Shown piece by piece: positions 21,692 through 46,921 of a DNA stretch of 64,000 nt. Position numbers and translations under genes: made by a program. The stretch lies in NCBI GenBank assembly GCA_016181305.1, contig JACOZN010000012.1, forward strand, positions 965 to 64,964, read 5' to 3'. A model generated the notes under the pieces. That model searched no databases, was not told the origin of the DNA, and saw only the letters and a program-made list of their open reading frames with translations. Position 1 is the first letter of the stretch. Each line of letters opens with the position of its first letter. This DNA comes from Candidatus Woesearchaeota archaeon (GTDB lineage Archaea; Nanobdellota; Nanobdellia; Woesearchaeales; GW2011-AR4).

Positions 21692-21692
21692 T

Positions 21693-28249: not shown

Positions 28250-30178
28250 TCATTTTAATTCAGGGGCGGGGACATTTTTTGAGTACGAGCTGAGCCCGGA
28301 AACAAACAAAAGCATCTCATCCTCTGATGCAGGCCCCTGCTCCACCACATGGAACACGATTTCATTTGCATTTAACAATGCGCTTTTGCTTGCCTTCAGC
28401 TCGCCGATGTAGCCTGCTACAATACTTTCTTCGTCTGTGACATAAATTTCCACGTCATAAGACGCGTCCCTGTCCGCAATCTTGAGCGGGAATTGCGACT
28501 CCTGCGGGTAGGCTGCAAAGCTCTCGAATCCAAAGTCCTTTCCTTTTATTGATATAGAGGCTTTTTCATTCGGAGCCAGGCTGCTTGAAACAGATGGATT
28601 TGAAAGCAGGTGCTTCACAACCATGTAGTTATTGAATTCTTTTACTGGGTTGAGCGCCAGCACATACGAGCGCCCGTCAACATCAGTCTGTATAAAGGAT
28701 GCAGCATCGCCAAAGCCTCCCTTTTCGCCCTTTATGACGCCGTAGACGCAGTACGGGAACAATCTTGTTATGCCTGCTGCAGCTCCGAGGCTGAGCCAGT
28801 CGCTCTGCCCCATGCCGCAATAATAGCGCCCGCATACAAAGGTCAAATTCACGCCTTTTATGTCATCTCCCGTCGAATTGTCGACGGTAAAAATCGTCAC
28901 CTCATTCTGCACATTGCTGCAGTAGTCATCCTGGCTTAAGTCCGGGGGAATATCAAACAATGTCGCGCCTGACTTAAGCCTGTTGGGCTGGTTGTGGTCA
29001 ATGGAAGCCCTGAATGCAAAGCTGAACTGGTAAGGCTTGTTTGACTCAGTCTCCTGGTCAAAGATTGAGGCAACAACAGGGAAATTTATGTCGTATGTGA
29101 AATGCCATATCTGTAGGCAGAAGAACGAAAGCTTGTCAGTCCCTTTTTGCGCATTGCTCCTCAAAATGCCGTTTTCGCTGGGCCTCGCGTAAATACTCAT
29201 TGGCCAGCCTTCATAGGCAAACGAGACTTTCATATTGCTGTATTTTCCCGGGTCTTTGTCTATCTCCCATATGTAATGCTGCTGGAAATAAGTGTCTGAG
29301 TAGACACTCCTGCCGGCAGGGTTCGGAACATACAAATTTGGGTTGTAGTCTGTGCCCTTTACCCTTATGTAAGGCAGGTTGATCCTCAGCAAATTCTTTA
29401 ATTTCTCTTTTATGCTGCTAAGCTGCCATGTCTTCGGGCTGCAGCCCGCCTCTACATCTGTGGTAGGAATGTCCACGTCCATGGACATCAGGTCTATTGC
29501 CTTTCTCTCTATAAAATAATCCTTGTTCTCCCTTTCCATAATCAGCTTTGCAGCCTCGTACACTTTCTTAAATCTTATTGGAAGCGTGTAGCCAAACCTT
29601 TCAAGAAGCGCCTTGAAATTGCCTTCCTTTCCAATGACCTCCACATGGTAATCCAGCTCTACAGAGACATCATTCTCGTTGAACTTCACTGCGGCAACCG
29701 GCTTTTTCAATTCGTTTATCTCGAATCTTCCGCTGAACGGCTCGAAATCACTGATGCAGCTTTTCAATTCCGACTCTATGTGGCTTGCGAGCTGCTGGTT
29801 TATGAATTCCTCTGTCGGGACAGCCTCAATGCCGTCATGCCACCAGTACGGCATTTTGAAGCCTCCGGCGGGAAATGCCGCCAGATACGCCCTTTGGTCG
29901 CTTTTTATACTTTCAGGCACGCTTATGTAGCCGCCGCCCAGCCCTATTCTTTCCAGGCCGTCCTGCGCAACACTTTTTATGCAGTCTTCTATATAGACTT
30001 TCACGGGAAGCGCCTCGGGCTGCACAACTTCCACAATATCCCGGAATATCTGCCTCTGGTAAAGAAAATAAACAACCCCTGAAAGCAGGATTACCATGGC
30101 TATTATTATGAAAATTGCCGCCTGTGATTTTGAACTGCGGATTAATGCAGTGAATTTACCTCTTTTTTTTATGCTCAT
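28250..30178 (-). CDS. KxQ-anchor / GGY-domain family protein (642 aa), paralog 1
   Basis: N-terminus is ...RSSKSQAAIFIIIAMVILLSGVVYFLY, then CIKSVAQDGLERIGLGGGY, LKSCISDFEPF, VSVELDYHVEV, LPIRFKKVYEAA. These motifs are shared with 3 other ORFs. Confidence 0.8.
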   Translation of the reverse strand: MSIKKRGKFTALIRSSKSQAAIFIIIAMVILLSGVVYFLYQRQIFRDIVEVVQPEALPVKVYIEDCIKSVAQDGLERIGLGGGYISVPESIKSDQRAYLAAFPAGGFKMPYWWHDGIEAVPTEEFINQQLASHIESELKSCISDFEPFSGRFEINELKKPVAAVKFNENDVSVELDYHVEVIGKEGNFKALLERFGYTLPIRFKKVYEAAKLIMERENKDYFIERKAIDLMSMDVDIPTTDVEAGCSPKTWQLSSIKEKLKNLLRINLPYIRVKGTDYNPNLYVPNPAGRSVYSDTYFQQHYIWEIDKDPGKYSNMKVSFAYEGWPMSIYARPSENGILRSNAQKGTDKLSFFCLQIWHFTYDINFPVVASIFDQETESNKPYQFSFAFRASIDHNQPNRLKSGATLFDIPPDLSQDDYCSNVQNEVTIFTVDNSTGDDIKGVNLTFVCGRYYCGMGQSDWLSLGAAAGITRLFPYCVYGVIKGEKGGFGDAASFIQTDVDGRSYVLALNPVKEFNNYMVVKHLLSNPSVSSSLAPNEKASISIKGKDFGFESFAAYPQESQFPLKIADRDASYDVEIYVTDEESIVAGYIGELKASKSALLNANEIVFHVVEQGPASEDEMLLFVSGLSSYSKNVPAPELK

Positions 30179-30194
30179 TTTTACACCATATTTA

Positions 30195-30350
30195 TCATTT
30201 GGATTTCTTATTCAGCGCCTTCACGTCAATCTTGCTCAGGTCAATCTCCACATAGTCCTTCTCCGTCAGATTAAGAACCTTGACTATATCAGAAGGCACC
30301 CTTACAACAAGCCCTCCGCTTGTCTTCATCAGCTTTTTTGTGTACTTCAT
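30195..30350 (-). CDS. AbrB/SpoVT-like small DNA-binding protein (51 aa; absent from ORF track)
   Basis: My own translation: MKYTKKLMKTSGGLVVRVPSDIVKVLNLTEKDYVEIDLSKIDVKALNKKSK. The G-x-V-x-(I/V)P...L-x-L...D-x-V pattern is typical of the swapped-hairpin AbrB fold. It ends 16 nt before the 642-aa gene. Confidence 0.6.
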   Translation of the reverse strand: MKYTKKLMKTSGGLVVRVPSDIVKVLNLTEKDYVEIDLSKIDVKALNKKSK

Positions 30351-30457
30351 TTCATATATGAAATATAGATATTTTATATATTTTTTATATATTTCTCAAT
30401 ATTAAAAAGGATAGATTTATATATAAATTATATATGAGATTTATAAATATTGCGGTT

Positions 30458-31216
30458 TTACAGCCTCTGGGCTTCCTCAGCCAGAGTGGAGGCGTAGTAC
30501 CTTGCAAAAGCTATGTACGCCAGCAGGATCAGCGCCTGAAAAACTTCCGAGTACCTGTATTTGGCTGAATTTGTTATCCTTGAAATTGCATAAAGCAGGG
30601 AGAGCATCGCAGCGTAAGGCAGAAGAAAAAGATGAATCTTCGCGAAATTAAGCTTGACCGCCTCGATTATCGACTTCAAATTCCGCCTCTTCATGAAAAT
30701 CGTGTACAGCGTGTTGGTGAGGTAAAGCGCCAATATTGCAATTATAACTACAAACACCTGGACAGCCGCGGGCTCCACAAGCCAAAAAATTGCAGAAACC
30801 AGCAGAAGCCAAAACCCCATCCAGGCCAAGTTCAAGCCGAGAAACCTTGAGATCAGCGCAAGGCTTATTCTTGTTTTTGTAGTTTTTGCCCATATGATTC
30901 CCTTGAGGATGCTTGCGGTGAATATTATGGCAACCATTAGGAGTATGGCTGAAAAAATAATGAGGTAATAGAACTGGGACAGCAGCTGGTAAGCTTTGTC
31001 ATAGCCGATGGCAGCCAAATCAGAAGGAGACTGCAGCGGTATTGAGTAGCCTTTTTCTTTTATCCTCTGCAGCCAGAATAGGATGAAATAGCCTGACAGG
31101 AAATAGAACAGCGCATCAAGTATTATTACCAGTATAATTTCCAGGCCGATTTTTTTGACCGATGAAACAAGGACATTGGTGTTCCATTCAAGAAAATCCG
31201 CTTTTTTATTCTTCAT
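30458..31216 (-). CDS. polytopic membrane protein, terminal gene of island module B
   Basis: 252 aa, about 6 TM segments. It starts 5 nt after the 1455-aa gene and parallels the 20864..21691 product. Confidence 0.7.
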   Translation of the reverse strand: MKNKKADFLEWNTNVLVSSVKKIGLEIILVIILDALFYFLSGYFILFWLQRIKEKGYSIPLQSPSDLAAIGYDKAYQLLSQFYYLIIFSAILLMVAIIFTASILKGIIWAKTTKTRISLALISRFLGLNLAWMGFWLLLVSAIFWLVEPAAVQVFVVIIAILALYLTNTLYTIFMKRRNLKSIIEAVKLNFAKIHLFLLPYAAMLSLLYAISRITNSAKYRYSEVFQALILLAYIAFARYYASTLAEEAQRL

Positions 31217-31221
31217 TTTGG

Positions 31222-34200
31222 CTAAAAGTCATTTATGTCGCTGCTGCCGCCTGTTCCGGTAGATGTTGTGGCAGTTGCTGTTGTGCCTGAAATCGGTGTT
31301 GGCTCTCCTGAAGACTCGACTATTGTGTTGCACAATTCCTTGTCCTCGAGCTTCCATCTCAGCGGTATCTCGTCAAACACTATGCAGACTTGGGTGTACA
31401 AAAACGCGCTTTCCTGAACTATTGCATTTCTGCCCATCCTGCCGAAAGTCGAGCCTCTTTTTATTTCCACATCGCTCTTGAAAACATTCACTCTCCTCTC
31501 GCCTTTCAGGAGAACATTGACGTTCATCTCCTCAGGCGCCCTTGGGTCCTTGTCATAGTCGCCGTTCCTGATATTGAATGTTATCATGTAAATGAATTCC
31601 TGCCCGGTACCTGTTTCGATTGCCTCTGTCCTTCTGGCTTCGATATGCGCTCCTATCTGCGCCAAGCCTTGCGGAGTTTCTGCAAAGGCAACTCCCTCGT
31701 CTTCGCCGTCAATATACTGGCTGCAGATTGCGCTGCTCCAGTACTCTGTTCCCAGGTACAGGGTAGCAAATGCCCTGTCAATCTTGTCGCGCCACTGCAT
31801 CAGGGAATCCTCGTCGAAGAACAATGTTGCATAGTATCCCAGGCCCCTGAATTCTGTAAATATTCTTTCCACTTCTGCAAAGAAGCGCTGCGAGTTCAGC
31901 TGCTTTAATGTGAAGCCCTCCTTGCCTTTTTTGCCGTGAACCATCTGGTTGTCGGCTGCTGTTTGCATCAAAGCCAAAATCTCAGAGTCTGCATCTACAA
32001 ATTTTTTCTTCCCCTCTGAATCCAGGTAGTATAAAGTTGGACCGGATAGCAAACCACTTCCTTCAAAGATGCATTCATCCACTGGACATATAGCAGTGAA
32101 AACTTTAATCTTGCCATAGTTAGTGTCAGTAGGATCAAAGCCAAAGGTTTTGTCTATTTCCATGTAACCGCGCGGGGTATCAATTTTTATTCTGTCCTTA
32201 TCGCTATAATCAAATTCGTATTTTTGGCCATCTTTCACAAATTTAACCTCCTGAAGTTCCCCTTTGCTGTTGAATGTTCTTGAAGTAGCGCCTTCTCCAA
32301 GCGTAGGAACACCATCTTCGAGCTTAACACTACCTTCATAAACTTTTTCTATGCCATCTTTAGTTACCTCTCTTTTTACCAAGTCTTTCTGCATTGTCAA
32401 AATATTTTCGCCTTCGAAATTCAGATGCAATCCGCTTTTGTCGCCTATAACGCCTTGCTGGGTTTTGGTTAAATCAACGCCTGCCTTCACAGCCTCAGTT
32501 AATATCTGGTTGCGCCTGTTTTCGTCAGTTACAAGATTTGGGTTTGTGCTTTGCAACTCACTAAATGATTTTCCGCTGAGTTGTGTGGTTTTGCCGTCAA
32601 CAGTGACTTTTACTTCAGCCTTGTCTGTGAGCTGTGCTTGCTTTGGCTCGTATTTTACCTCTATCCTTGAGCCGTCTGCAAGGGTTGTTGTTTCTATCTT
32701 CTGGAATTTCTCCGGATTTAGGGGGTTGTCTGTTATTGTGGTTTTTGTCCGCCTGTCTTCAAATATTTCTGTTCTTGTTTCCTTAATTAAAGACTTGTCT
32801 TTTCCGTATTTTCTGTCTGTAGCAATTTCTGTAGCGCCATCTTTTACAATAACCCTTTGGTCTCCGCCAGGCGCTGTAACTGTTATTGCTCCAGTTTGGG
32901 CATTGTAACTAAATCCCTTCTTGAAGTCAACGCCTTTTAATAATGAAGCATCCGTTGTTATTTCCACGCCGCCATAAACAATCTTCTGTTTGCCTTCAAC
33001 AGGGTTGAAAATTTCAAGCTCATACTGCTTATTGTCTCTTCCTAAAACCAGAATTTTTTCTTTGACAGCAGGCGAAACTGTTCTAGCAGGCGCTGAAACT
33101 GAGAGTATATCAGGCGGTGCGCCCTCCTTTATTTCTTTTGTTGTGCTTCTGACATCTTCTTCGCCCTGAACCAAAACTCTGCCATATTCAACCCTGACAC
33201 AGCTTATTGTTGGCGGGCATTTTCCAACTGGATATTTTTCGAGAGTTTGTGGGTTCACGTCCCTTGCTTTTTGGTCGTCCTCTTGATTAATATAAGTTTG
33301 TTTAGCCAAAGGCTGCGGTTGTTGTATTTGGCGTGGAGCAGGAGAAGGTGCTGAACGCTGTTCCACTAGTGCAGTGGATGCATACTTTTCCAAAAGTACA
33401 AGCTGCCCATTTGGCTCTACCCTGTAAACTTCACTTTCAGTAGTAATATAGTATTTATTATCGGCATCTTTGTAATTAAAACCGACAATATTGCCACTTT
33501 CTTCATCAATTACCGGGCTGGCTTTTAACTCACGATTTCCTGAGAGTATGTAATATTCCCCTCCTTTTTTAATTGCAGGGCCTATTGTTGCTTGTAGTTG
33601 GGTTTCAGTCGCTGGCGTTTCTGGAATTGTTGTAGACTTTTCTTCAATTATATTTACAGTCGCTCTTGATAAGCCATCTGTTAGTCTTACTTCTATTTTT
33701 TTACCCTTATACTTCTCCAATTCTCCCCCTTCTAATGCTCCAACAACCTGATTATTATTGTTGACAATAGTTCCATCTTCTCTTACATTGTATTCTCCCA
33801 ATGTTGTATCTGGATTGTCAGCGAAATCTTGTATTCTTTGATATTTCGGCTTTTCTTGCGAATCTGGTTTACTTGCATCAGCTGGCGCTTGTGCTTCTTG
33901 TATTAAACGAAGAGCTTCACTATGAATTTCATTATATTCATCGGGAGAAACAGTTTCATCAGGATAACAAAGATCGCAGCCCCCCAGTGTTCTAACCCTC
34001 ATTAATTTCAAATTCTCTATGCTGTCTCCGTCAAGATAATACTCCTCTGAGCCTATTTGTATATATTCATTTTTCTGTGCAATCTCAAGAAGCTCAGTAT
34101 CGTATTGCTCTTGGGTTTTTCCCTGTGTTGATACATCAAAAATTTTTCCTAATGGGTTTTCAATGACTTGTGATTCTACAACGCTCTTGATTTCAACATC

Positions 34201-35589
34201 ATAGCTATATGAACCCCTTGGATCTCCTTGTACATTTTTTACAAGAAATTCTTTACTTTGACTTCTGAAAACTTCACCTTCAAGAGGTATGACAAAAATA
34301 CCTTTGGGTACGCCAGTTTCATAAAATCCATAAGCCTCGTCATAATAATACCCTCTTAATCCTGATAAAGTTCCGTAGAAATCCTCTGGTGGTGGATTGT
34401 AAAGTCTGAATGTGTGAACTTCACCATCTTTATCGGTAAATGTTAAAGTTTCCGGAGCTTCCCTTATATCAACTATACCCAATTTTCTGTAGTTTAGGCT
34501 ATTTGACTTTCCAATTTCGGTATTAAGTTTTTCTGGCTCTTGAGTTGCTGAAATTTGTGATATGCTTGCACCAAAATCTTCATTTTGCTGGTAGTCTGTA
34601 TTTTTTCCCAAGTAGCTAAGGTAAACACCTTTGTCGACATTTATGCCGTCTATTATTCCGTACCAATCATCAACTTTTGGATCAAATTTTCCATCACCAT
34701 CAATATCTACCCAGTCTATATAACCCCTGCCTTCAAATTCCCTCCTATATTGGACAGTTTTTATTGTTCCTTGTTGCTGTGTTTCCGAAATCGTACTAAT
34801 CCCCGGAAAACTTGAGCTTTTTTTGATACCCTGGAGATATTCCTGATATGCTTCCTGTGCTTCTTCATTTTCAGGAGGGGCTCCGATTTCAGTCAGTTGC
34901 TGAGCTACATCCTCTAGCTCGGGATTGACAAAAGAAAGCTTATGCACGTCCTTGGCAGGGTACTCCTTTTTGCCGAATAGGCCATAGAATGTAACCTTCC
35001 ATTCTTTTGCGTTATTATCCCAAATGAATATTGCTTTGTCATATAAAAATGGGTCACGCACTTCAGAACGGAAGTAATAGGCTTGATTTTTTGTGGCTCT
35101 TTGCAGTGACTCTGATTTCTTGTCGCTTAAAATCTGGAATCCTGTTATGCGGGCAAGTTTTGAAATTATTGTTATTTCTTCTTCCACAAACTCCCCTTCA
35201 TCCGCAACCTCGCTTTCAGGCAGCCCTGTGAAAGTCTTGTCAAGCCTTGCTGTCCCGTCTGCTTCAACAATCAACAGCCCATTCTGTTCCTCCGGGTTCC
35301 TTACTTTTATGTACAATGAAACATAAGAGTTGAAGCTGTCGAGGTAATACACATAGCCGTTGATTATCTGGTACCATCCCTCGTTTAAATGGCTTAGCTC
35401 ATTCACATTTCTGACTTCAATGGTTTTCAGCCCAAACCCATTTTCGCTTATTGCAGTTTCCTTAGCAACATTGGCTGTTATATTATTTTCATAAACAATA
35501 GATGTTGCCAGTACAAGAGACAAAATTATAATTATGGTTGTGAATACAAGCAGCGCTTCTGCCATTTTACCTGGGATTTTTTGCTTCAT
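31222..35589 (-). CDS. giant anchored/secreted protein (1455 aa)
   Basis: Uninterrupted 4.4 kb ORF with an N-terminal signal anchor (ALLVFTTIIIILSLVLATSIVY). The C-terminal ~250 aa resemble part of the 2179-aa protein. The tail is Thr/Gly-rich. Confidence 0.85.
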   Translation of the reverse strand: MKQKIPGKMAEALLVFTTIIIILSLVLATSIVYENNITANVAKETAISENGFGLKTIEVRNVNELSHLNEGWYQIINGYVYYLDSFNSYVSLYIKVRNPEEQNGLLIVEADGTARLDKTFTGLPESEVADEGEFVEEEITIISKLARITGFQILSDKKSESLQRATKNQAYYFRSEVRDPFLYDKAIFIWDNNAKEWKVTFYGLFGKKEYPAKDVHKLSFVNPELEDVAQQLTEIGAPPENEEAQEAYQEYLQGIKKSSSFPGISTISETQQQGTIKTVQYRREFEGRGYIDWVDIDGDGKFDPKVDDWYGIIDGINVDKGVYLSYLGKNTDYQQNEDFGASISQISATQEPEKLNTEIGKSNSLNYRKLGIVDIREAPETLTFTDKDGEVHTFRLYNPPPEDFYGTLSGLRGYYYDEAYGFYETGVPKGIFVIPLEGEVFRSQSKEFLVKNVQGDPRGSYSYDVEIKSVVESQVIENPLGKIFDVSTQGKTQEQYDTELLEIAQKNEYIQIGSEEYYLDGDSIENLKLMRVRTLGGCDLCYPDETVSPDEYNEIHSEALRLIQEAQAPADASKPDSQEKPKYQRIQDFADNPDTTLGEYNVREDGTIVNNNNQVVGALEGGELEKYKGKKIEVRLTDGLSRATVNIIEEKSTTIPETPATETQLQATIGPAIKKGGEYYILSGNRELKASPVIDEESGNIVGFNYKDADNKYYITTESEVYRVEPNGQLVLLEKYASTALVEQRSAPSPAPRQIQQPQPLAKQTYINQEDDQKARDVNPQTLEKYPVGKCPPTISCVRVEYGRVLVQGEEDVRSTTKEIKEGAPPDILSVSAPARTVSPAVKEKILVLGRDNKQYELEIFNPVEGKQKIVYGGVEITTDASLLKGVDFKKGFSYNAQTGAITVTAPGGDQRVIVKDGATEIATDRKYGKDKSLIKETRTEIFEDRRTKTTITDNPLNPEKFQKIETTTLADGSRIEVKYEPKQAQLTDKAEVKVTVDGKTTQLSGKSFSELQSTNPNLVTDENRRNQILTEAVKAGVDLTKTQQGVIGDKSGLHLNFEGENILTMQKDLVKREVTKDGIEKVYEGSVKLEDGVPTLGEGATSRTFNSKGELQEVKFVKDGQKYEFDYSDKDRIKIDTPRGYMEIDKTFGFDPTDTNYGKIKVFTAICPVDECIFEGSGLLSGPTLYYLDSEGKKKFVDADSEILALMQTAADNQMVHGKKGKEGFTLKQLNSQRFFAEVERIFTEFRGLGYYATLFFDEDSLMQWRDKIDRAFATLYLGTEYWSSAICSQYIDGEDEGVAFAETPQGLAQIGAHIEARRTEAIETGTGQEFIYMITFNIRNGDYDKDPRAPEEMNVNVLLKGERRVNVFKSDVEIKRGSTFGRMGRNAIVQESAFLYTQVCIVFDEIPLRWKLEDKELCNTIVESSGEPTPISGTTATATTSTGTGGSSDINDF

Positions 35590-38500
35590 TTTTTTGTTTT
35601 AACCGGCGTAAAGCCAGAATCTCCTGTTGTCTTTTTTGGCTTTGACTTGTCCTTCAAGTCCAATCTCGAGCAATAATCTTCCCTTACCTTAAATCCTTCA
35701 TCTATAATATTTTTCACATTGCCTATGACTTCCCCTGTTTTCGCCAATAGCCTCCAGCCTTCGCATGCTGTGAATACTGCAGTAGAGGTTGGCGCCGGTG
35801 CAGGGCAAGTCGTCTTGCACAGCAATGCAACTCCGACTCCCAAGGCTGAAAAGGGGTTTGACAAGGCGTCCTTTATTATTCCGGTAAAGTGGTCGAACAC
35901 GGCAGTGTAGGGAATCAGTGCAAAAAGCTCTCCGTAAACATACTTGCAGGTTGAAAATGCTTTCAGGTCCTCGCATGCGGTCACTGGCAGCCCATCCTGC
36001 GCAACAGCGTTTTCCAAACAATCAGCATACAGGCATTTAATCTGCCTGTACTTGTCCAATCCGTAAATTATTCCGGGAATGCACGCAAACAAAGTAGCAA
36101 CTATGAGGTTTCTCTGCGGGTTCATGTATTCTGCAAAGCCTCCTTTGATTTGGTCGCCCACTTTAACCTGCCCTCCAAGAGAATACTTTCCTTCCCCTCC
36201 AGAAACATATTCAGGACTTGGTGTAGGCAGGTATTTTGCTCCGGGCAGGCTGTTAATCATGCCCTTTACGTTATTCTGCCAATATCCTAAAACCCATGGC
36301 GCCCATTGGCAGTTGACAAACTTGCAAGCCTTGACTCCAAAGTCTATGAAGGCATTTTGTGCAGCTTCTTCCCCGGCTTGCTGCGCCCCGCATTGGGCTG
36401 TCTTGGCGTTATAAGCTGCAGTACAAACCGGAATTCCTATTATAGGCAGTCCCCCTTTATAACAATTGTCAGTGAAAATTCCAAGAAGTACTGTTATGGT
36501 GTACATCACAGTAATAATATTGTACAGCGTAGCAAACAATTGGCATATCTTTTTTGCAATGGTGAAAAACTTGTTAAGGCTGGAGATAGCCTTGAAAATG
36601 CCCTCTGCATCATCCTTTGCGTCTTTTATCTTGCGCTGGATTTCGCTGCTTACCTCCCCTAATGGAAGATTTGAAAACAGGAGATTTATCTTTGCAGTTT
36701 CTATCTCCGGGTTTCGTGTTATGTCTGTACCGCTTCCAATCTTCGAGAATATGTTGAAAGAGCAGCTTAGGCTTGCATTGCTGAGCTTGAAGTCATCTTT
36801 CTTCAACGTTATCTTTATGACAGGCGACGTGCTTCCTGGCTCTGTGTTGAAAGTGTCAACGCTGTCCACGATTGATGTGTCGCCTGAGCAGCTTGCAGAC
36901 CCAATGAAAACAGTCGAGACAGCCTTTGTTGCTGATTTCTGGCTTAAGTCAACTTCGCAGAAAACCCTTTGGTTTATCAGCGGACCAAGCTGCCTGTCAA
37001 TTGTTTCAGGAGAGCACTCGGCTTCGCTCGTCCAGAAATTAGGCACAGTGGCGTTTTCCAGGCCATAAGTCTTCAATGACTTTGTAACAATAAGCGTGTT
37101 GCCTGCATTGTCGCTGAAGTTGAACGTTATGAAATCAGAGGCTTCAAGGTTTATGGGGTCAGTAAGCCATATGCATATGTTCTCGTCTGCCTGTATCTTT
37201 TCGCATTCTCCCTTGGCATCCGAGGCATCGCTTATGAAGCTGGAAAAGTCGGCTGATACAAAAACATCGTTGTCTTCTGTGACATTTGCAACTACAGCAA
37301 TCTTGTCGCCTATCTTGAAAAAGCCTGCAAATGCCTGGGCTAAGCCGCCTACATTGGTTATGTTCATGCTCTTCAACTGAGGGGCATCCTGGTCAAGCTT
37401 TACCTCAAGCTGCGTCTCTTCAGCAACTGAGTTTCCAAGCAAATCCGTTGTGTCAGAGCCTATGGAAATTGTGGAAACTGGCCTGAACCTGACATCTTCC
37501 CAGATGCATGTCCATCCTGACTCCTGAATGCAATTTGACGCTTTGAGCTTGGCTCCGTCAACAACAAGTATTGCGTCTTCCGGGCTCAAGCCCGTTGAGT
37601 CGTCGAAAACAGCTGTTACAACATTGCCTGATGCTTTGCCTATCAGCTGCCCGTCTGCCAAAGTGGACGTTGACAAGAGCTGCAAAACAGGCCCTTCCTC
37701 GTCCAAAGAAAGAAGCTTTGTAATTGTGACGCTTCCTTTGTTTCCTGACTTGTCAGAAGCATTGATTATGATATTCTTGAAGCCGCCAGTGCCTGGCTTG
37801 AGCTCAACAGCCCATGCGCATGCGCTTGTGCCGCCTTGCAGTGTGCACGATGCCTTTGCATTTTTTAAGGCTTGGCTGGGGTTTAATGCTGACAAATCAG
37901 CTGTTACTGAACTCAGGCTTAAGTCATCCCCAGATATATTGACAGCCACAACTGCGTCCGAGCCAACAGAGGAATAGGTGCTAATTGCTATGTCTTTTAC
38001 AAAAATGCCAAAAGTGCCGGGCAATGCCAAAGGAGGAGTGTTGTCTATTGTAAATGTTGCCGATGCATCGTCTGAAACCTGGCTGAATTTGTCGGTTGCC
38101 TTTGCAAACACAGAATTCAGGCCGTCGTCAAATACGCCGGAGTTAATGGATATGTTGGAGCTGTAAATGCACTCGCTTGAAGAAATGTCAACCTTTTGGC
38201 TGAGCGAGCTGTCCAGCGTGAAAAACTCTATGCTTTTTATTCCTGCGCACTTGCCGCCGCAGGACGGCTCGTCGCATGCAAAGTCCGCAATGCTGTAAGT
38301 GATGTTAATGTTCTGTCCTGAGGAAAACTTGCTCTTTGGAATGGTTAGCTTAACTTCAGGCGGCTTGTTGTCTATAGCCAATGAGCTTTGCTTTGAGTCG
38401 TCAAGAGTTTTGTCGTCCCTGTAAAGGTTTATTGTGACAGGGAATGATGTTGCATCAAATAATTCTGTGCCGCTGCTTGGGTATCTCAGCGTGCACAAAA

Positions 38501-38774: not shown

Positions 38775-40894
38775 TTTAACTGGAATGACGGCTGCAGGGC
38801 AGCCTGGTATGTTTTTGAGTAATCCTCAACCCTGTTCATCTGCTCAATGTCCTCTATCACCCTCTGGCTTTCAGGCACATCTGCAATGCCTATGCTGACT
38901 GCATAAAGCACGATTGTATTGTGCTTTTCAAGCTCGTTTGCGCCAATCGTGAAATTCAGCTTAAGCCCTCCCTCATTGAAATTCTCTCCATAATCAATTT
39001 TTTGTATTGTAAAGCATTCTTTGCCTCCGAAAAATCCCTTCTTGACGCACTTCTGCCTTTCGGGAATCACTATCATTTCGTTGAGCAATAGTGTTATGTC
39101 AGCCGAGTAAGCGCCTGGCGCAATTTCTATTTCGCTTGACTCTTTCTGCTGCCCTTCGTAGCCGGCAATTGAGGAAAAATCAAGCTCGGTGCCGTCGCTG
39201 ATTCTTGTCAGTACAACAGATGCCGACTCTTTGCTGCTCAAATCAGCAGCGGCATCGGAAAACTGCCATCCTTGCGGAGTCTTTACGACACTTTTTTTCC
39301 TGACAATCAGGTTTTTTGTGTAGATTGGGGTGAGCTGCGCCTCAACAGAATCTTCCCTGCCTGCTTTCGGGTCATACTCAACAGCCTTTCCTATGTAGCC
39401 GTCTTTGACTATGCTGACACTTCCGCCAACTCCAACAGGGAACTGCTCCTTCAAAATCCCGTTTGCATCTGTTGCGCCTATAAAGCAGCTTTCTCCTATA
39501 ATAGTGTAAAGCACCTGCGCATCTTCAACTGATTTTTTTGCTGCCGCATCAGCAGCATGTATTGTTATGTTGCCGCTTGTCCTTGAGTCGCAGAGCAGTG
39601 TCCTTTCCGACAATGAAGCCCTTTCCAAAGGAGCAAATCCAGCAGGCATGGGCTTGTTGTTCCTTATGTTGCCTTCAAGGAAGAAATTAAATGAGTAGCC
39701 CTGCCCGTTCAGCGCAAGGGGGTCCTGCACTTCAACCATCACAGGAAACGACAAGTCATACACAAACCTGTACTGCTGTATTCCGAAAAATGAAATCAGG
39801 CTGTTTGCAGAACTCGGCATGCACCGCTCGCCATTGCAGTTGAGCTCAAAGTACGCAGGCCAGAAATCAAGGTAAGTGAAATAAGCTGCAAGGTTTCTGA
39901 ATGAGCTGTTCGCAACAGGGATTATGGTTGAGTCGTAAAGCCTTTGGGCAAGCTCCGACTCAAATTCGTTCCTCTCGTAATTGTAAGTTCCGTCAACCTG
40001 GAAAAGAGGTATGTAAGATGTAAGCAGCCCGGTAACCTTATTTTTAACGTCGCTTTTCCTCCAGCTTGTTGACGAGCCGAACTTGAACTGCAGGTCCGAC
40101 ATGGGAGGCAGTTTTGACTTGTCAGTGCCTGAAAAAGCCACAAGCAAATTCAGGGCGTGCTTCTCAATGTAGCGGTGCTTTATCTCCATGTTTGTAATCT
40201 TTGTAGCCAGGTCATAGATTTTGTCAAGATTTATCGGAATTCTTGCAACGGACTGGCTCAGCCTTGTATTTGCAGCTTCTTTTTCTATATCCAGCGGATA
40301 GTCCACTATGACCAAAACATCGCTGGACGCTATTGTGACATCCGCATTTAATTTTCCGGCTTCGCTGATTTTGAATCCCTGGTCTGCAAATGGCTCGAAA
40401 TTTCTTGTGCATTCCCTGAACTTCAGGTTGATATGCCTTTCCAGCTGCTTTTCAATCGAATTGTCAGTTTGCCTGAGCTCGGGCCTTTTGGAAGAAAACC
40501 TGCAGTCGCCTTTGCAGCTGTTCGCCGACTTTAAATACCACCAGTACGCAGTTTTCAGCCCGGAGCCTTTTGTGAACTCGACAGCATCGCTTTCTGTGGG
40601 GTTTTGTGTTATTATGAACGCCTCCCTGTTCAGGCTCTTGTCTGCAAAGCTTATGTAGCCGCCCTGCTTTCCTATTATATTCAGCCCTTCCACTGCAACA
40701 GAATAAGCGCAGTCGTCCAGGTATTTTTTCACAGGGTCAAATTCAAGAGGCACCTGCTCCTGCACAATCCTCACTTCAGGCTCGAGCGGCTTGGCAATCT
40801 TCTGGGTGGTGTAGAAAAATATAGCGCCTCCGAGTATTATGACCAAGCCGACTATCATGAAAATTGTCGTCTGTGATTTTCTATTCAATTTCAT
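38771..40894 (-). CDS. KxQ-anchor / GGY-domain family protein (707 aa), paralog 2
   Basis: MKLNRKSQTTIFMIVGLVIILGGAIFFY, CAYSVAVEGLNIIGKQGGY, FRECTRNFEPF, VLVIVDYPLDI, IPINLDKIYDLA. Confidence 0.8.
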   Translation of the reverse strand: MKLNRKSQTTIFMIVGLVIILGGAIFFYTTQKIAKPLEPEVRIVQEQVPLEFDPVKKYLDDCAYSVAVEGLNIIGKQGGYISFADKSLNREAFIITQNPTESDAVEFTKGSGLKTAYWWYLKSANSCKGDCRFSSKRPELRQTDNSIEKQLERHINLKFRECTRNFEPFADQGFKISEAGKLNADVTIASSDVLVIVDYPLDIEKEAANTRLSQSVARIPINLDKIYDLATKITNMEIKHRYIEKHALNLLVAFSGTDKSKLPPMSDLQFKFGSSTSWRKSDVKNKVTGLLTSYIPLFQVDGTYNYERNEFESELAQRLYDSTIIPVANSSFRNLAAYFTYLDFWPAYFELNCNGERCMPSSANSLISFFGIQQYRFVYDLSFPVMVEVQDPLALNGQGYSFNFFLEGNIRNNKPMPAGFAPLERASLSERTLLCDSRTSGNITIHAADAAAKKSVEDAQVLYTIIGESCFIGATDANGILKEQFPVGVGGSVSIVKDGYIGKAVEYDPKAGREDSVEAQLTPIYTKNLIVRKKSVVKTPQGWQFSDAAADLSSKESASVVLTRISDGTELDFSSIAGYEGQQKESSEIEIAPGAYSADITLLLNEMIVIPERQKCVKKGFFGGKECFTIQKIDYGENFNEGGLKLNFTIGANELEKHNTIVLYAVSIGIADVPESQRVIEDIEQMNRVEDYSKTYQAALQPSFQLK

Positions 40895-41330: not shown

Positions 41331-42557
41331 ATGGCTGAAAAAAGTCTGGCTGATTACATTAAAAGCATGTCCCAAAAGGGCTACGATTCTTCCTCAATAA
41401 GGAACATATTGCTAAGGTATGGCTACAGCCAAAGGGATATTGACAGCGCAATGGGCTCTGCCACAAGCCATACCATAAGGCATGAAATTCATTTGTCCCA
41501 TACAACTGCATTGGTGATTATATTCCTCATTGTTTCTGCTGTGGGGGCTGTATCACTCATTTACCACAGCCCGTCAAAAACTCCCTCAAAGCTGCTGGAC
41601 CTGAACCTTGAGCCTGTGGCAACTACAGTCGAGGCGGGGCAAAACATTGTTTTTCTCAAGGAGCTTTCCAACCTAGGCTCTTCAGAAAGATATGATGTTG
41701 TCATAAAGCAGGATCTCATAGATCCGTTGACAAGCAGGATAATAACCCAAAAAATCGAGACAAGGGCAATAGAAACTTTCGGCTCGACACAGACAAGGAT
41801 TCTCGTGCCAAAAGAAGCAAAGCCTGGCGACTATATTTTAAGGGCTGTGGTAGAATACGGGGATAAAAAGGCAATTGCCACCCTGCCTGTAAAAATCGTG
41901 TCTTTTGCCGCTGAAACCTGTTTTGACGGCATAAAAAACCAGGACGAATCGTCTGCTGACTGCGGCGGAGCCTGCAAGCCCTGCGAAACCCAGGCAATTG
42001 AATGTGATGACAACAACCAATGCACGAATGATGTCGTGGAAAACGGCGCTTGCATAAACAAGCCGATAGCGCCATGCTGCGGGAACAAGGTATGCGAAGC
42101 TGAGGAGCAGGGCAGCTGCAGTGCAGACTGCATAAAAATTGAGCAACCCGCAATATCAAGCGAAACTCTGGACGACATAAAAGAGCTTGCAAGAGTTGAT
42201 CCGGCTAAGGCGCTGCAGCAGTGCATGAGGCAGGAGCTCCCCGACTATAAGGACGAGTGCATAAGCAACATTGCAGAGGTCCAGCGCAGCAAAGGCTACT
42301 GCCCGCAGATAACAAGCCCGAGGGCGAGGGATGTGTGCTATTTGAACATCGCAAAGCTTGCCAACGACAACTCAATATGCAGGGACATATCCACAGAAGG
42401 CAGGCGTGATTCATGCTACATGACATTTGTGCTCGACAACAAGGATTATTCAGTCTGCGGCAGCATAACAAACAAGCAGCTCAGGCAGTCATGCGAGTCA
42501 TTGAGGCAGCTGAATGACTTGAATCAAGCATCACAAAATCAAGCAGAGATTAGTTAG
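41331..42557 (+). CDS. membrane-anchored Cys-rich extracellular protein (408 aa)
   Basis: Small N-terminal helical domain, one TM, an Ig/CARDB-like segment, then Cys-rich modules (CFDGIKNQDESSADCGGACKPC; CDDNNQCTNDVVENGACINKPIAPCCGNKVC) and repeated C-x-D/N-x-C units. Confidence 0.75.
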   Translation: MAEKSLADYIKSMSQKGYDSSSIRNILLRYGYSQRDIDSAMGSATSHTIRHEIHLSHTTALVIIFLIVSAVGAVSLIYHSPSKTPSKLLDLNLEPVATTVEAGQNIVFLKELSNLGSSERYDVVIKQDLIDPLTSRIITQKIETRAIETFGSTQTRILVPKEAKPGDYILRAVVEYGDKKAIATLPVKIVSFAAETCFDGIKNQDESSADCGGACKPCETQAIECDDNNQCTNDVVENGACINKPIAPCCGNKVCEAEEQGSCSADCIKIEQPAISSETLDDIKELARVDPAKALQQCMRQELPDYKDECISNIAEVQRSKGYCPQITSPRARDVCYLNIAKLANDNSICRDISTEGRRDSCYMTFVLDNKDYSVCGSITNKQLRQSCESLRQLNDLNQASQNQAEIS

Positions 42558-42590
42558 AAAACAATTAAAAAAATCATTAAAATTAAATAA

Positions 42591-42672: not shown

Positions 42673-42733
42673 AACAGCAAGATGAAAGTGAACCGCTTTT
42701 AATGAGTTTAGTAAATCAGTAGGCGAGGCAAAT

Positions 42734-44575
42734 ATGTATATATTCAAGCACAGGCAAAAACTGCGGAAAAAGAGGATTTACAGCAAAGCCCAGATGTCTG
42801 TATTCTGGATTATGGGCTTGGTTATGTTTATAGCGCTGGTTGCAGGCTTGTTCGTCTATAACGACTTAAGGACGGCTAAGATTAAGGAAGGGGCAAAAAA
42901 TGACCTGAGCTCGCAGGCAGAGGAAATTGAGAAATTTGTGAACGACTGCATAAGAAAAGAGGCGTTTGAGGGATTGAAAAGGCTTGGGCAGACTGGCGGC
43001 TATCTTGAAATCCCGAAAATCATAAGCTTCAAGGGCACAGGCTATTGGTACCTGGATGAGGTTAACATACAGCCAATCCTCAACCAGACTCAGGAAAGGC
43101 TGCTCGAGCACATCAGTGCAAACGTGCCAAAATGCGTTGACGACGAAAGAATAAAAGAGCTTGGGTTTGCAGTCCAAAAAGGGGCTATAAAAACGACAAT
43201 CGAGTTCGGAAATGCCGATGTGACAGTGAAGATAGAGTATCCAATAAGGCTTGAGAGGGAAAAATTCACAAAGGATTTCTCTGGTTTTTTCAACTCTTTT
43301 GACATAAGGTACAGGGCTGTGTTCGAGGCTGCCACAGAGGTGAATGAAAGGCTTTTCGACGCTGACTTCGACATCAAGAACCCATTGAAAAAATTGGATT
43401 ACCTGAAAAGCCTTGAATTTGATGTGTCATACAAGAGCCCTGAAACTGATGTAATGGTGTTTACAGTAACAGACAAGAAATCAATTCTGCCGACAAATGA
43501 GCTTTATACTTTCAGCTTTGCTGCGAGGCTCGGCACCTCTGACTTGAAGAAGTTCATTGACTTGCAGGACAACAGCGCCACAAATCCGGTATTTTTGCCC
43601 TACACAATTTATTCTGTTGACAAGAAGGCTCAGCTTGACATTTCATCAGGAACAACAATAAGCCTTGAAGGGCAGCCTGTAAAGGCGATAAGCGTTGAGC
43701 AAGCTTATCCAAATGAAGTCACAACAAAAGACGTCCCTGTCTACAAGAAAAACGACAAGATAATGCAAAAGCAGGACATAATCTATGTGATAGACAATCC
43801 CATATATACCTTTGAGCCTTCCGGGATTTTATTCAACAAGCACCAAAAGCTGGCTTTGTATTATGAGGATGAAATAAAGGCGAGCAAAGGCGTTGGAATT
43901 CTAATGGGAAAGAATGGCTTCTGGATTCCTATTCCGTCAAAGCACGAGCCTGAGCAGAAAAGGGTGTTTGCCAGCATACTAGGGTTTACTGAATTTACTG
44001 CTGTGAACTGCGCATCGCAAAAACTCAAGACAACAATTGCAGAGCATTTCTTTGAGCCAGCCCCTCCATGTTTTATATTCGGGGCATTGAGCATAATTGC
44101 TGTATTGGCAGTGGTTGTTACGCTTATCGGTGGTGGGCCTGTATTATTCGGACTTTTTGGCGGTCCAACTGCTGCTGAAGGTGGAATTATAAGTGCCATA
44201 GGCCAAGGCTTTATTAGCGGTTCAGAAGCTATCGGCATCGGCGGCATTACTTTTGGTGCTACCGCTGCCACAGTTGGAACTGTCCTTACAGGGCTAACAT
44301 TAGTTACTATAGCAGGCTCTATACTCGGAGCCACAACAGACGTCTTCTACGAAAAATCCCCTGAAAACTGCGAAACTTTCTATCCAGTCTGCGACCAGAA
44401 CATAAATATAGAAAAAGAGCTGAAAGACGGCACAGGGGACTGCATTCCGGACAGCGGCGCAAGGGTTGCCGCAGGAGCGCCTGCAAACGTATGCGCCCAG
44501 GTGAAGAAATGCGACTCATTGAGCAAGTTCTTCTGCAAGCCGTGCAGCGTGAAGTGTAGTGCGCAGTTTTATTGA
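42734..44575 (+). CDS. KxQ-anchor / GGY-domain family protein (613 aa), paralog 3, with Gly-rich membrane region and Cys-rich tail
   Basis: ...IYSKAQMSVFWIMGLVMFIALVAGLFVY, CIRKEAFEGLKRLGQTGGY, VPKCVDD, VTVKIEYPIRL, FDIRYRAVFEAA. The C-terminus has a ~90 aa G/A/I/T-rich hydrophobic stretch followed by 8 Cys in the last ~70 aa. Confidence 0.8.
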   Translation: MYIFKHRQKLRKKRIYSKAQMSVFWIMGLVMFIALVAGLFVYNDLRTAKIKEGAKNDLSSQAEEIEKFVNDCIRKEAFEGLKRLGQTGGYLEIPKIISFKGTGYWYLDEVNIQPILNQTQERLLEHISANVPKCVDDERIKELGFAVQKGAIKTTIEFGNADVTVKIEYPIRLEREKFTKDFSGFFNSFDIRYRAVFEAATEVNERLFDADFDIKNPLKKLDYLKSLEFDVSYKSPETDVMVFTVTDKKSILPTNELYTFSFAARLGTSDLKKFIDLQDNSATNPVFLPYTIYSVDKKAQLDISSGTTISLEGQPVKAISVEQAYPNEVTTKDVPVYKKNDKIMQKQDIIYVIDNPIYTFEPSGILFNKHQKLALYYEDEIKASKGVGILMGKNGFWIPIPSKHEPEQKRVFASILGFTEFTAVNCASQKLKTTIAEHFFEPAPPCFIFGALSIIAVLAVVVTLIGGGPVLFGLFGGPTAAEGGIISAIGQGFISGSEAIGIGGITFGATAATVGTVLTGLTLVTIAGSILGATTDVFYEKSPENCETFYPVCDQNINIEKELKDGTGDCIPDSGARVAAGAPANVCAQVKKCDSLSKFFCKPCSVKCSAQFY

Positions 44576-46149
44576 GGGTTATTTTTAAAATGATTGTAGT
44601 AAGCCATAACTTCTTTTACATAATCCCTCGTAGTGTAACCTGGCACAATAACTACATCAGGAACTGAGCGCTCTTTGGCGACTCTGGTGGGGCCAGCCTT
44701 GCTGTAACCTGCAGCAATCAATTGTAAGTTCCCGTTAAAGCGTTCTGTAAGATATGTGAGGACAGCCATTGATGCATCAGTAGCTGTATACTTATCCTTT
44801 TTAACTTCATTCCAGTCGTATGTCCCATATACTTCCCTTTGATTGACATCCTTCACAGCTATGTAGTTTAAGTGTCCTATCCCGTGATTTCCTTGGCTTG
44901 GTCCTACATAAGGGTCAAATTTTGACTCAACTGCAAATATGGCTTTGACAAGATTTTTATCAACTTTTAAGCTGGACAATTCTATCCTATTCACAATATC
45001 CTGATTTTTCGGAATATTTGTTTTTTCAACTAATCCTATATCCCTCTTAAACCTCTCACTTTCTCCCGATGGTATTTCAGCGTTGAACTTTACGCCCCTA
45101 ATTACAACTTCAGCATTTGTATTTGACTCAGTATTAGGCGGAATATTGGGATTCCATTTTACATTCGGCACCCTTATCTGCACATTCGAGTCTTTGTATT
45201 GAATCTCTGCATCGCCGTTTTTCAGGGCATTTAATAGCTTGATATTCTGGTCCGCATTATTTGCGCTCCTGTATGTTTCTCCCGGGAAAGTTTCTTCATA
45301 TTTTATTTTCCTCGCCTCGAAATTATTGCTGCCATAGCCTGCCTCCTTGAATACATCAGATATGGATTTGTCAGTGCCCAAAACAACAAAATTCCTTACA
45401 GGAGTAAGTGTATAGCCCAAATCATCCTCGACAAAAGAAAACCTGACCGGGCGGTTTTCAGCCATCAATTTAATGCCGTCAAATATCGTCTCTTCCTGCC
45501 GCGGCAGCACATATATATTGCTGTTTGCAAAGTCTATATAACGTTTATCGGATTTGCTAAATTTGTATCCTTTGCCGTCAAAGACTATGTCTGCTCCGGG
45601 AAGAGTTGTTGTCTTAGAATCGCCCTCAAACCTTATTGTATTTGTCTTTTCGTTATAGAAAAACTTGGTGTTTTTCCCTATTTTCTGCTCTAAAACCCTG
45701 GAGTTGTCGCCAGCAACGCCGCTAATCTCGCTGGAATATTGGTTGTATTTAACCCCATTGGAGTTTTCTATGGGCAAGCCATTAAACGGGCTATTTTTAA
45801 TTGAAAACACACCCTTTTCAATTGAAAAGCCGTCCAGTTGTTTGGAGTATGTGCCCTTGCCGGTAAACACTGCTCCGCTGTCTTTAAGAGTGGCAGTTGC
45901 ATCAACAACGCGAACCTTGCCGAGAAAATCAGCTGGAATTTCAGCAGAGCTTCCGAAAGTTAATGTCAGGGAATTTGATTCTTTATTGTAGTAAAAACTA
46001 TCGCCCACTATTTTAATGCCTATATTTTTATCAATCCATTTTGCCCTGTCTTCTTGTGTTCCACACTTGTCATAGTCGTCGCATGCGCCCTGCACAAAGG
46101 CACCAAGCGCAAAAAGTGCAATAATCCAGACCAAAATTATTTTTTTCAT
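44569..46149 (-). CDS. secreted protein with C-terminal SLT (lytic transglycosylase / GH23-like) domain
   Basis: I prefer the ATG at 46149 (MKKIILVWIIALFALGAFVQGA signal peptide), 1 nt after the stop of the 256-aa gene. The C-terminus reads LVKAIFAVESKFDP...GNHGIGHL...AVLTYL...LIAAGYSKAGPTRV, which fits the SLT pattern (A-I-x-x-x-E-S, G-L-M-Q-like, Y-L, A-Y-N-A-G). Confidence 0.7.
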   Translation of the reverse strand: MKKIILVWIIALFALGAFVQGACDDYDKCGTQEDRAKWIDKNIGIKIVGDSFYYNKESNSLTLTFGSSAEIPADFLGKVRVVDATATLKDSGAVFTGKGTYSKQLDGFSIEKGVFSIKNSPFNGLPIENSNGVKYNQYSSEISGVAGDNSRVLEQKIGKNTKFFYNEKTNTIRFEGDSKTTTLPGADIVFDGKGYKFSKSDKRYIDFANSNIYVLPRQEETIFDGIKLMAENRPVRFSFVEDDLGYTLTPVRNFVVLGTDKSISDVFKEAGYGSNNFEARKIKYEETFPGETYRSANNADQNIKLLNALKNGDAEIQYKDSNVQIRVPNVKWNPNIPPNTESNTNAEVVIRGVKFNAEIPSGESERFKRDIGLVEKTNIPKNQDIVNRIELSSLKVDKNLVKAIFAVESKFDPYVGPSQGNHGIGHLNYIAVKDVNQREVYGTYDWNEVKKDKYTATDASMAVLTYLTERFNGNLQLIAAGYSKAGPTRVAKERSVPDVVIVPGYTTRDYVKEVMAYYNHFKNNPQ

Positions 46150-46150
46150 C

Positions 46151-46921
46151 CTATTTTTCCATCGCAAAGCTGAATATGTAGTCATCTCCATCCACTTTAG
46201 TTGCATTGTCAAAAATAGTGAAAATCATAGAATCTTTCTCTGAAACAACATCAATAAAGACATTGTTTTCCGAGGCCAAGTCGATGAGGCAGTCTATGCA
46301 CAAGGCTCCATTGTCCCTTATTTTGCCTTCTGTTATGTTTGAAGCTAGGATGTATATTGTATTGAGCCTGACAGGGACCTCCGCCCTGAAATAGGGTATT
46401 TGAGTTTCTGCGCCTTCCTTGGAAATTGTAATTGGATAATTAATGTCAACTAAAACGCTTTCAGTGCCTATGGTTGATTTGACAGAGATGGCGCCTCCTT
46501 CAATCCTTGCCCCCTGGAAGTCCTGAAGCCCCTCAATGCATTGCGGCAGCTGCTCCGCTACATAGCCCGATATCTGCATCTCGACAGAGCTTCTTGAAGG
46601 CATTGTATTCCTGCTTTGATAGGCATAGTAAGGCACCTCGTCGTAGAAATAGGTTAGCTTTGGTTCAGGCACCTTGTAGTATCCCCCGTACAATCCCGTG
46701 TAAACAACTGAGTCTTTGGCTGTTTCACTCACGCAGAAATCAATGTTCAGCTTGGCAGGCAGCAGCGAGGAGGGCGCGTCTGCAACATTGACAATTTCGC
46801 TTGCTGCTTCAGCCTCCGCCCTTGTTTTGTTTATAGCAACATAGCTGATGAAAGAAGCAGCTATCACCAGCACTAGCCCAAATATAAGAAACAATGCAAC
46901 TTGGGTTTTTTTGCTCGCCAT
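46151..46921 (-). CDS. KxQ-anchor / GGY-domain family protein (256 aa), minimal paralog 4
   Basis: MASKKTQVALFLIFGLVLVIAASFISY, CVSETAKDSVVYTGLYGGY, LPQCIEGLQDF, VLVDINYPITI, VPVRLNTIYILA. It consists of little more than the shared domain. Confidence 0.75.
   Translation of the reverse strand: MASKKTQVALFLIFGLVLVIAASFISYVAINKTRAEAEAASEIVNVADAPSSLLPAKLNIDFCVSETAKDSVVYTGLYGGYYKVPEPKLTYFYDEVPYYAYQSRNTMPSRSSVEMQISGYVAEQLPQCIEGLQDFQGARIEGGAISVKSTIGTESVLVDINYPITISKEGAETQIPYFRAEVPVRLNTIYILASNITEGKIRDNGALCIDCLIDLASENNVFIDVVSEKDSMIFTIFDNATKVDGDDYIFSFAMEK

Follow-up and report, generated by a model that had tools for sequence, protein, structure and literature searches.

Archaea of the DPANN group spend their lives attached to other cells, and little is understood of the ways in which these hosts are recognised, held and breached. 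In the Sulfolobales, the large secreted canopy protein SlaA is held by the membrane-anchored SlaB, which is encoded in the same operon, and in modular type IV pilins, such as PilB and PilC of Streptococcus sanguinis, a pilin N-terminus is followed by C-terminal functional modules. Minor pilins combined with a Sec-exported PilY-type tip adhesin are also a known arrangement (PMC4858521), and archaeal PilY-like/DUF2341 proteins have been found in Epd and subsystem 4A loci, and the Sulfolobus bindosome and other non-filament proteins with class III signals are encoded away from type IV filament (TFF) loci and are presumed to be retained on the cell by their helix (bioRxiv 10.64898/2026.04.22.720090). 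The Epd pilins of M. maripaludis have the processing sites RAQI, KGQV, KGQV, KGQL and KGQI; their prepilin peptidase EppA needs a Gln at +1, and a Glu at +5 is typical of EppA substrates as well as of bacterial type IV pilins (PMC4371748). In DPANN, TFF loci of the Epd type ('System 1') have been reported (bioRxiv 10.64898/2026.04.22.720090), and the pilins that belong to the nanoarchaeal machineries escaped identification in a census of archaeal type IV pili from 2016 (PMC4858521). Here we analysed 64,000 nucleotides (nt) from a Candidatus Woesearchaeota archaeon (assembly GCA_016181305.1, contig JACOZN010000012.1, positions 965 to 64,964 of the forward strand; hereafter, the window), in which four paralogous open reading frames (ORFs), A642, B707, C613 and D256, share a prepilin-like start and a domain that we call GGY. 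We lean towards a reading in which each family member is a pilin-like adaptor that tethers or displays a cognate Sec-secreted partner on the cell surface.

The original prediction had proposed these four ORFs, with the coordinates and strands listed in Table 1, on the basis of five shared sequence blocks; all of the ORFs and blocks were found, and the blocks align in register. The four are indeed true paralogs with a similarity far beyond chance. BLASTP returned E-values of 2e-15 to 6e-46 for all six pairs, and of 1e-11 to 6e-39 when the first 45 residues (leader and transmembrane [TM] segment) were cut, so that the similarity is not due to the hydrophobic segment. The columns that are invariant in all four (A642 numbering) are K17, Q19, F23, C66, G79, G82-G83-Y84, C141, V171, V173, Y177 and A210; the corresponding domain of D256, a protein identical to the 'hypothetical protein' HYT53_03760 of Ca. 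Woesearchaeota at NCBI, has C63, G79-G80-Y81, C128 and C209-x2-C212. The domain had been described as a two-cysteine one, which is correct for the family core (C63 and C128 in D256), but D256 and most short forms add a C-x2-C pair. Similarly, its ~200 amino acids (aa) do align block by block, but in the long forms the core is split, and its last strand (PYQFSFAF; A642 379-401) follows only after an insertion of ~150 aa. A family profile hidden Markov model (HMM), which had been suggested as a check, recovered on the six frames of the window exactly the four ORFs (D256, 3e-82; C613, 3e-50 over the whole domain; B707, 2e-47; A642, as a split match) and no fifth at E<=1, and a motif scan of the window for the K-x-Q-hydrophobic start found no further real ORF with such a start.

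The size of this family, its DPANN distribution in our sample, and its near-obligate coupling to a large secreted partner had escaped the original prediction. When 1.84 billion representative proteins were searched exhaustively with a profile, 9,260 clusters (50% identity) reached E<=1e-3, of which 7,276 also passed E<=1e-10 and 2,582 passed E<=1e-30; the majority are ~250 aa long and, like D256, 'bare domain' proteins. A word-indexed search with the 120-sequence alignment contributed hardly any further relatives. Scanning one genome per species with the N-terminal pattern gave 274 confirmed relatives, and the 79 loci that were retrieved all come from records titled Woesearchaeota, Pacearchaeota, Nanoarchaeota/Nanoarchaeia, Diapherotrites, 'archaeon' (unclassified) or 'uncultured Methanosarcinales'. 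Because the search pattern was derived from DPANN sequences, this DPANN-only outcome is biased by design, and the restriction of the family to DPANN, in what was sampled, is provisional. Family members occur in third party annotation (TPA) bins titled 'uncultured Methanosarcinales archaeon' (L024, L028, L035, L042, L049, L054, L057, L059 and L070); L042 and L059 contain the full DPANN-type operon, and these bins are probably mislabelled. The 81 related loci that we analysed hold 102 members, which fall mainly into two size classes, ~240-270 aa and ~600-880 aa, alongside a small number at 330-360 aa, and there are often several copies per genome. Mid-size forms of 330-370 aa, such as P0017, have Ig-like (immunoglobulin-like) C-terminal modules of their own, and A642 has more than 100 orthologues, all of them 'hypothetical'.

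The pilin-like character claimed for the N-terminus is supported by the sequences of 165 relatives, in which we counted the Gln as +1. Their start follows the pattern of a short basic leader, [KR]-[G/A/S/T]-Q-x-[TS]-x-F, and then ~20 hydrophobic residues. K or R is found at -2 in 158 of the 165; G (74), A (48), S (33) or T (9) accounts for -1 in 164 of them; F stands at +5 in 156 and in all four window members; and the Gln lies at median position 6, which makes for a very short leader. No exception to this Gln occurs among the four paralogs or in a 14-sequence alignment, and it is conserved to at least 90% in alignments of 120 and 57 sequences. The basic leader with K/R at -2 and a small residue at -1 is that of a class III signal, homologs with canonical KRGQ, KKGQ and HRGQ exist, and the motif scan places ~20 uncharged hydrophobic residues after the putative site, and the AlphaFold2 (AF2) models have an N-terminal helix. 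The sequence evidence thus supports a match between the family N-terminus and EppA-type class III (prepilin-like) sites, the near-invariant Gln being at the same site as in EppA substrates, and from this match we infer that the members are cleaved. As had been remarked, C613 is the only one of the four with G or A at -1, the residues allowed when a FlaFind-like pattern is applied to this position. That concern is eased by the A642 orthologues, where -1 is S in 60, A in 36 and G in 12: given this interchange, the Ser and Thr of the window members look like tolerated small residues.

The same type of start is not confined to the family. Unrelated proteins of 113-300 aa encoded in the DPANN loci also begin with [KR][GA]Q and a hydrophobic stretch, for instance MFSKKGQGLSLNVIIVAAIALIV, and this sharing suggests that such a start serves more generally in the targeting or processing of proteins in these organisms. 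Small proteins of this kind, unannotated, unrelated and with a hydrophobic helix, are encoded at L039 3900-4241, L045 3874-4218, L018 10462-10968, L034 17720-18184, L073 5812-6291 and 6929-7729, and L048 9133-10035. They are candidates, on their sequence, for the true DPANN pilins.

The second line of evidence comes from the genes that follow. A same-strand gene lies directly downstream of 91 of the 102 members, at a median distance of -4 nt (10th to 90th percentile, -38 to +22), and the protein that it encodes measures 777 aa in the median and 2,931 aa at most. At the junctions in the window, B707 and G1062 overlap by 4 nt, A642 and G2179 are separated by 17 nt, and D256 and S547 by 1 nt. Each member is, apparently, co-transcribed and translationally coupled with the next gene. 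A Sec-type signal peptide of the signal peptidase I (SPase-I) class, not a class III signal, was recognised in 72 of 73 partners, and no further hydrophobic segment in 47 of 60 complete partners (35 of 38 when only the partners of short forms are counted). Pairing is also subtype-specific: A642-like members have a G2179-type gene directly downstream in 16 loci and never a G1062-type gene, and B707-like members a G1062-type gene in 8 loci and never a G2179-type gene. Pfam domains are mostly absent from the partners, with the exception of a few cases of PG_binding_1 (2), SLT, PG_binding_2, DUF1615 and Ig-like domains, and of fn3 in G2179; a PilY/DUF2341 domain was not found by Pfam in the window partners or in 42 partners of short forms.

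This coupling bears on one alternative, namely that the members are autonomous adhesins or pilus subunits (major or minor pilins), that the adjacency of the large genes reflects operon organisation only, and that no partner is bound. In its favour, the members have a class III-type signal and, as pilins often do, come in several copies per genome; the mid-size forms with their own Ig-like modules do recall modular pilins, and C613 has no partner. A near-universal -4-nt coupling to a large Sec-secreted gene in divergent lineages and a strict match between subtype and partner are, however, hard to explain without a functional link, and a globular domain of ~230 aa on a flexible linker is atypical of a filament-forming major pilin, so that we regard this alternative as very improbable. 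One dedicated upstream gene per partner, translational coupling and subtype-specific pairing would suit a private membrane-bound chaperone (Lif/foldase-like), which would give its partner transient help with folding, disulfide formation or S-layer crossing after Sec export and would be absent from the final surface structure. Lipase-specific foldases, which are N-terminally anchored and encoded beside their lipase, offer a precedent, the GGY domain has conserved Cys pairs, and many partners are Cys-rich, with 40-70 Cys. Most partners of short forms, however, are not (median 1.06% Cys), a chaperone has no need for a prepilin-type signal, the Ig/CnaB-like stalk domains of the long forms are of a type usual in structural proteins of the cell surface, and Foldseek showed a fold unlike those of known foldases or thiol-disulfide oxidoreductases. 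We consider a chaperone role improbable.

That the domain belongs to no described family, as the original prediction had supposed, agrees with every search that we performed. The four proteins had no family match in Pfam-A, NCBIfam or PHROGs, and sequence-profile searches of the PDB returned nothing below an E-value of 0.27; a non-significant match, confined to the helix, was to 8tob, a 'Fimbrial protein' (E 0.6-0.7). The AF2 model of D256, based on 120 homologs (predicted local distance difference test [pLDDT] 94.4, predicted template modelling score [pTM] 0.82), begins with a protruding helix (4-41), after which comes a compact alpha/beta domain. Foldseek comparison of this model to the PDB gave nothing at E<=1e-3 and no template modelling score above 0.2, and comparison to the viral folds of BFVD gave no credible neighbour. 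Structural likeness to solved type IV or archaeal pilins was not found for the GGY domain, which, as modelled, has no recognisable pilin fold, and its fold may be new. In A642, the core GGY domain (26-231) is followed by the insertion, the last core strand and a tandem of beta-sandwiches (~420-615), and the AF2 model of this protein (pLDDT 83.5) shows an N-terminal helix at 16-46 and the GGY module and insertion as in the HMM match. Local Foldseek matches of the sandwiches were to TIE protein, SpaA, a streptococcal ancillary pilin and CnaB2, and the modelled extension resembles the Ig/CnaB-like stalk domains of Gram-positive pilins and adhesins. The extension module of the A642/B707 type is common to all 45 long-form relatives examined, and the homology between A642 and B707 extends over ~600 aa (E 6e-46). 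The C-terminal extensions had been called variable, then, with good reason only in the case of C613, whose tail contains hydrophobic/TM segments rich in Gly (about 440-535), ends in a Cys-rich region (12 Cys), and has no relatives among the related loci.

Taken as an adaptor, a family member would be inserted into the membrane and trimmed by a prepilin peptidase before Gln+1, and its N-terminal helix would then keep it attached, either as a membrane stalk or, within a type IV filament, in the role of a minor or tip pilin. The GGY domain would capture the cognate secreted partner, and adhesins and wall-active enzymes such as S547 would in this way be displayed and not lost to the medium. In the long forms A642 and B707, Ig/CnaB-like beta-sandwiches would be added as spacers, and the partners that these two serve would be the giant, TM/Cys-rich proteins G2179 and G1062. 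A broader and more tentative proposal, which we would sooner doubt than assert, is that the Woese-, Pace- and Nanoarchaeota among DPANN possess a dedicated and massively diversified two-gene 'adaptor plus cargo' system, in which a pilin-like protein of unseen fold, processed by an EppA-type peptidase and then loaded onto a type IV filament or retained in the membrane, specifically docks one Sec-secreted partner. If this were the case, the cargo would range from giant adhesins and Cys-rich membrane-active proteins to peptidoglycan-lytic enzymes, the host-contacting cell surface would be assembled combinatorially from adaptor-cargo pairs, and the 26-kb cluster described here, with its three pairs and C613, would be an apparatus for host attachment or host penetration.

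A number of observations weigh against the adaptor. No prepilin peptidase (A24), TFF ATPase or platform protein was found in the window or in the 81 related loci; it had been suggested to look for a peptidase elsewhere in the genome, and our scan covered the window and these loci, where an A24-like gene did not turn up. Three of the four window members (A642 and B707 with S, D256 with T) fail the strict [GA] rule at -1, the four proteins had no match to Pfam Class_IIIsignal (PF04021/DUF361) at E<=0.1, and the residue at +5 is Phe instead of the Glu of EppA substrates and bacterial pilins. In the D256 model, the helix is not packed on the beta-sheet as in the pilin arrangement, helix and domain are joined by a linker (~40-50) with a pLDDT of 65-76, and no pilin was among the top 50 Foldseek matches in the PDB. 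C613 has no downstream partner and converges on S547; no fused 'Rosetta-stone' proteins of member and partner were seen, and the long-form extensions and the C613 tail are absent from the partners. Finally, we infer partner binding from gene order only.

Several of these points would be expected if the members were uncleaved signal-anchor stalks, whose unprocessed helix anchors them and holds the Sec-secreted partner in the envelope with no pilus machinery involved. TFF genes or a peptidase near no member, a linker that parts helix from domain in D256, Ser or Thr at -1 in 42 of the 165 relatives and Phe at +5 all fit such a stalk, as do tightly coupled gene pairs whose partners lack anchors of their own, and SlaA and SlaB provide a precedent. 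SlaB is anchored C-terminally, however, which is a different topology, and an unprocessed anchor would give no reason for a Gln that hardly varies, for K/R at -2 and a small residue at -1, or for so short a leader, nor would it explain the sharing of this start by unrelated small proteins and its coincidence with the EppA motif (PMC4371748). We consider such a stalk unlikely, and favour the processed adaptor. Archaeal pilin genes are, in fact, commonly unlinked from the pilus machinery (PMC4858521), and the missing linkage is therefore still compatible with a distant TFF locus. Walker-A proteins encoded near members were considered as TFF ATPases, and all four candidates proved to be Rad50 or SRP54/FtsY; M252 and M282 were considered as prepilin peptidases and have neither a G-x-[GA]-D-x-[KR] motif nor a Pfam match. 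Genes for SRP54 (window 4865-6214, - strand) and for SRP54 together with FtsY (L078 1790-5159) lie within ~20 kb of members, and this proximity, seen twice, is probably a coincidence.

Table 1. Family members and neighbouring genes of the cluster, with positions in the window
Name	Position	Strand	Description
M282	20864-21712	-	Polytopic membrane protein, 6 TM; last in operon, overlaps the end of G2179
G2179	21693-28232	-	Partner of A642; Sec-type signal peptide, fn3 repeats, TM at ~965
A642	28250-30178	-	Long-form member; 18-aa leader, KS|Q19
M252	30458-31216	-	Polytopic membrane protein, ~5-6 TM, no Cys; between G1455 and A642
G1455	31222-35589	-	Third operon gene; 4-nt overlap of its start with the G1062 stop; hydrophobic segment at the N-terminus
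G1062	35586-38774	-	Partner of B707; Sec-type signal peptide, Ig-like ectodomain, TM at ~746, Cys-rich tail (31 Cys)
B707	38771-40894	-	Long-form member; leader MKLNRKS|Q; core, insertion and conserved beta-rich extension
X408	41331-42557	+	Cys-rich single-pass membrane protein, 20 Cys, 1 TM
C613	42734-44575	+	Member with the only -1 Ala (KA|Q) of the four; core, then unique tail
S547	44569-46149	-	Partner of D256; secreted, C-terminal SLT lytic-transglycosylase domain
D256	46151-46921	-	Short 'bare domain' member; leader MASKKT, Q7, hydrophobic helix, alpha/beta GGY domain

The four paralogs lie in a cluster of ~26 kb (20.8-46.9 kb) that encodes large secreted and membrane proteins (Table 1). 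Its gene order, B707-G1062-G1455-M252-A642-G2179-M282, recurs in many loci, among them L023, L036, L042, L043, L055, L059 and L065. Only the C-terminal ~200 aa of G1455 are conserved, with relatives in 10 loci and always at the same operon position; relatives of M252 occupy the same position in L023, L043 and L065, and those of M282 follow G2179-type genes in L041 and L049. Relatives of X408 are found near family members in 9 loci, in a looser association. The fn3 repeats of G2179 (Pfam, 1.4e-15) precede a Cys-rich C-terminal region of ~1,200 aa with 46 Cys, and the Ig-like assignment of G1062 comes from a weak Big_3_3 match in Pfam. G2179, G1062 and C613 have an unusual layout in common, with a large ectodomain, hydrophobic/TM segment(s) in mid-protein and a strongly Cys-rich C-terminal region, and the Cys-rich tails, which have no database annotation, are conserved within each partner type across loci. 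The true start of S547 is likely the ATG at 46149, one base past the D256 stop, which would provide the Sec-type signal peptide MKKIILVWIIALFALGAFVQG; the order of D256 and S547 is kept in a relative (L001), there with a 4-nt overlap. The SLT domain of S547 scored above the curated Pfam cut-off (1.2e-06). S547 is thus an archaeal secreted SLT-type lytic transglycosylase, and other partners have PG_binding_1, PG_binding_2, SLT or DUF1615 domains; peptidoglycan-directed cargo of this type, as recognised by its domains, hints at contact with bacteria and at bacterial hosts.

The rest of the window is archaeal housekeeping sequence, with genes for SRP54, Lrp/AsnC regulators, threonyl-, cysteinyl- and class I aminoacyl-tRNA synthetases (ThrRS, CysRS and aaRS), replication factor C (RFC) and ribonucleotide reductase. 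The G+C content is 0.46-0.47 in the cluster (22000-30000 and 36000-40000) and 0.37-0.42 in the flanking housekeeping regions. An origin of the cluster from a virus or mobile element was considered and rejected, as its PHROG matches are to generic fn3 only and in a second Woesearchaeote it is syntenic, with housekeeping genes on either side. A free-standing ORF (47516-48277, + strand) resembling LAGLIDADG homing endonucleases is located between D256 and the gene for CysRS; at the syntenic spot in L001 unrelated ORFs of 168 and 45 aa are found instead, which suggests that the LAGLIDADG ORF is a mobile insertion. The gene for the large subunit of ribonucleotide reductase (59026-61531, + strand) is not intact: an ORF at 59026-60765 (ATP-cone, N domain and barrel positions 1-332) overlaps, in another frame, with a second one at 60719-61531 (barrel positions 361-522), and a frameshift, a pseudogene or an error of assembly could account for this split. 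A beta-lactamase-family ORF (53753-54589, - strand; PF13354, E 7e-41) is also present in this DPANN genome.

Both the signal type and the general logic of a pilin that presents a secreted adhesin are already known. The GGY domain, the family, its size and the one-adaptor-one-cargo architecture in DPANN were, on the other hand, absent from the family databases and the literature that we searched. The GGY family is, in our opinion, a testable candidate for the missing link that joins the giant proteins on the DPANN surface to an apparatus for secretion or pili. It would also provide a genomic rule to find DPANN surface cargo, as the gene after a GGY-domain gene, and the domain merits a Pfam entry.

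In the comparison with described systems, different features of the family find a counterpart in each. Like modular pilins, the long forms A642 and B707 and the Ig-tailed forms of 330-370 aa have modules grafted C-terminally; unlike in modular pilins, the module next to the helix does not have a pilin fold, and the grafts of the long forms are generic stalk beta-sandwiches. The SlaA/SlaB operon similarly pairs a large anchorless secreted protein with a membrane-anchored stalk, but SlaB has a C-terminal anchor and no prepilin-like signal, and shows no sequence or structural similarity to the family. The Sulfolobus bindosome proteins share with the family a large ectodomain, a prepilin-type signal and a retained helix (bioRxiv 10.64898/2026.04.22.720090); they are, however, solute-binding and linked to ABC transporters, whereas the family is linked to a large secreted protein and its domain is uncharacterised. 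In the case of bacterial minor pilins and PilY1, proteins with a prepilin signal also adjoin a large Sec-exported adhesin and present it (PMC4858521; bioRxiv 10.64898/2026.04.22.720090), but there is no relation to the family in sequence or fold, the partners are devoid of PilY/DUF2341, and the family has adaptor and cargo genes in a 1:1 ratio that are unlinked to genes of pilus machinery in the loci examined. The closest likeness in signal is to the EppA-processed Epd pilins of M. maripaludis, which have the same short basic leader, a [KR]-[GA]-Q-[IVL] site and ~20 hydrophobic residues (PMC4371748), and whose genes, too, are often outside the pilus operon (PMC4858521). The family differs from them in its Phe instead of Glu at +5, in the Ser or Thr also found at -1 and in the absence of a Pfam Class_IIIsignal match. 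Epd pilins are, moreover, small, whereas the mature part of a family member would be a ~200-aa domain without structural relative, or 600-800 aa in the long forms, and, unlike Epd pilins, family members typically precede a large partner gene, as 91 of the 102 do.

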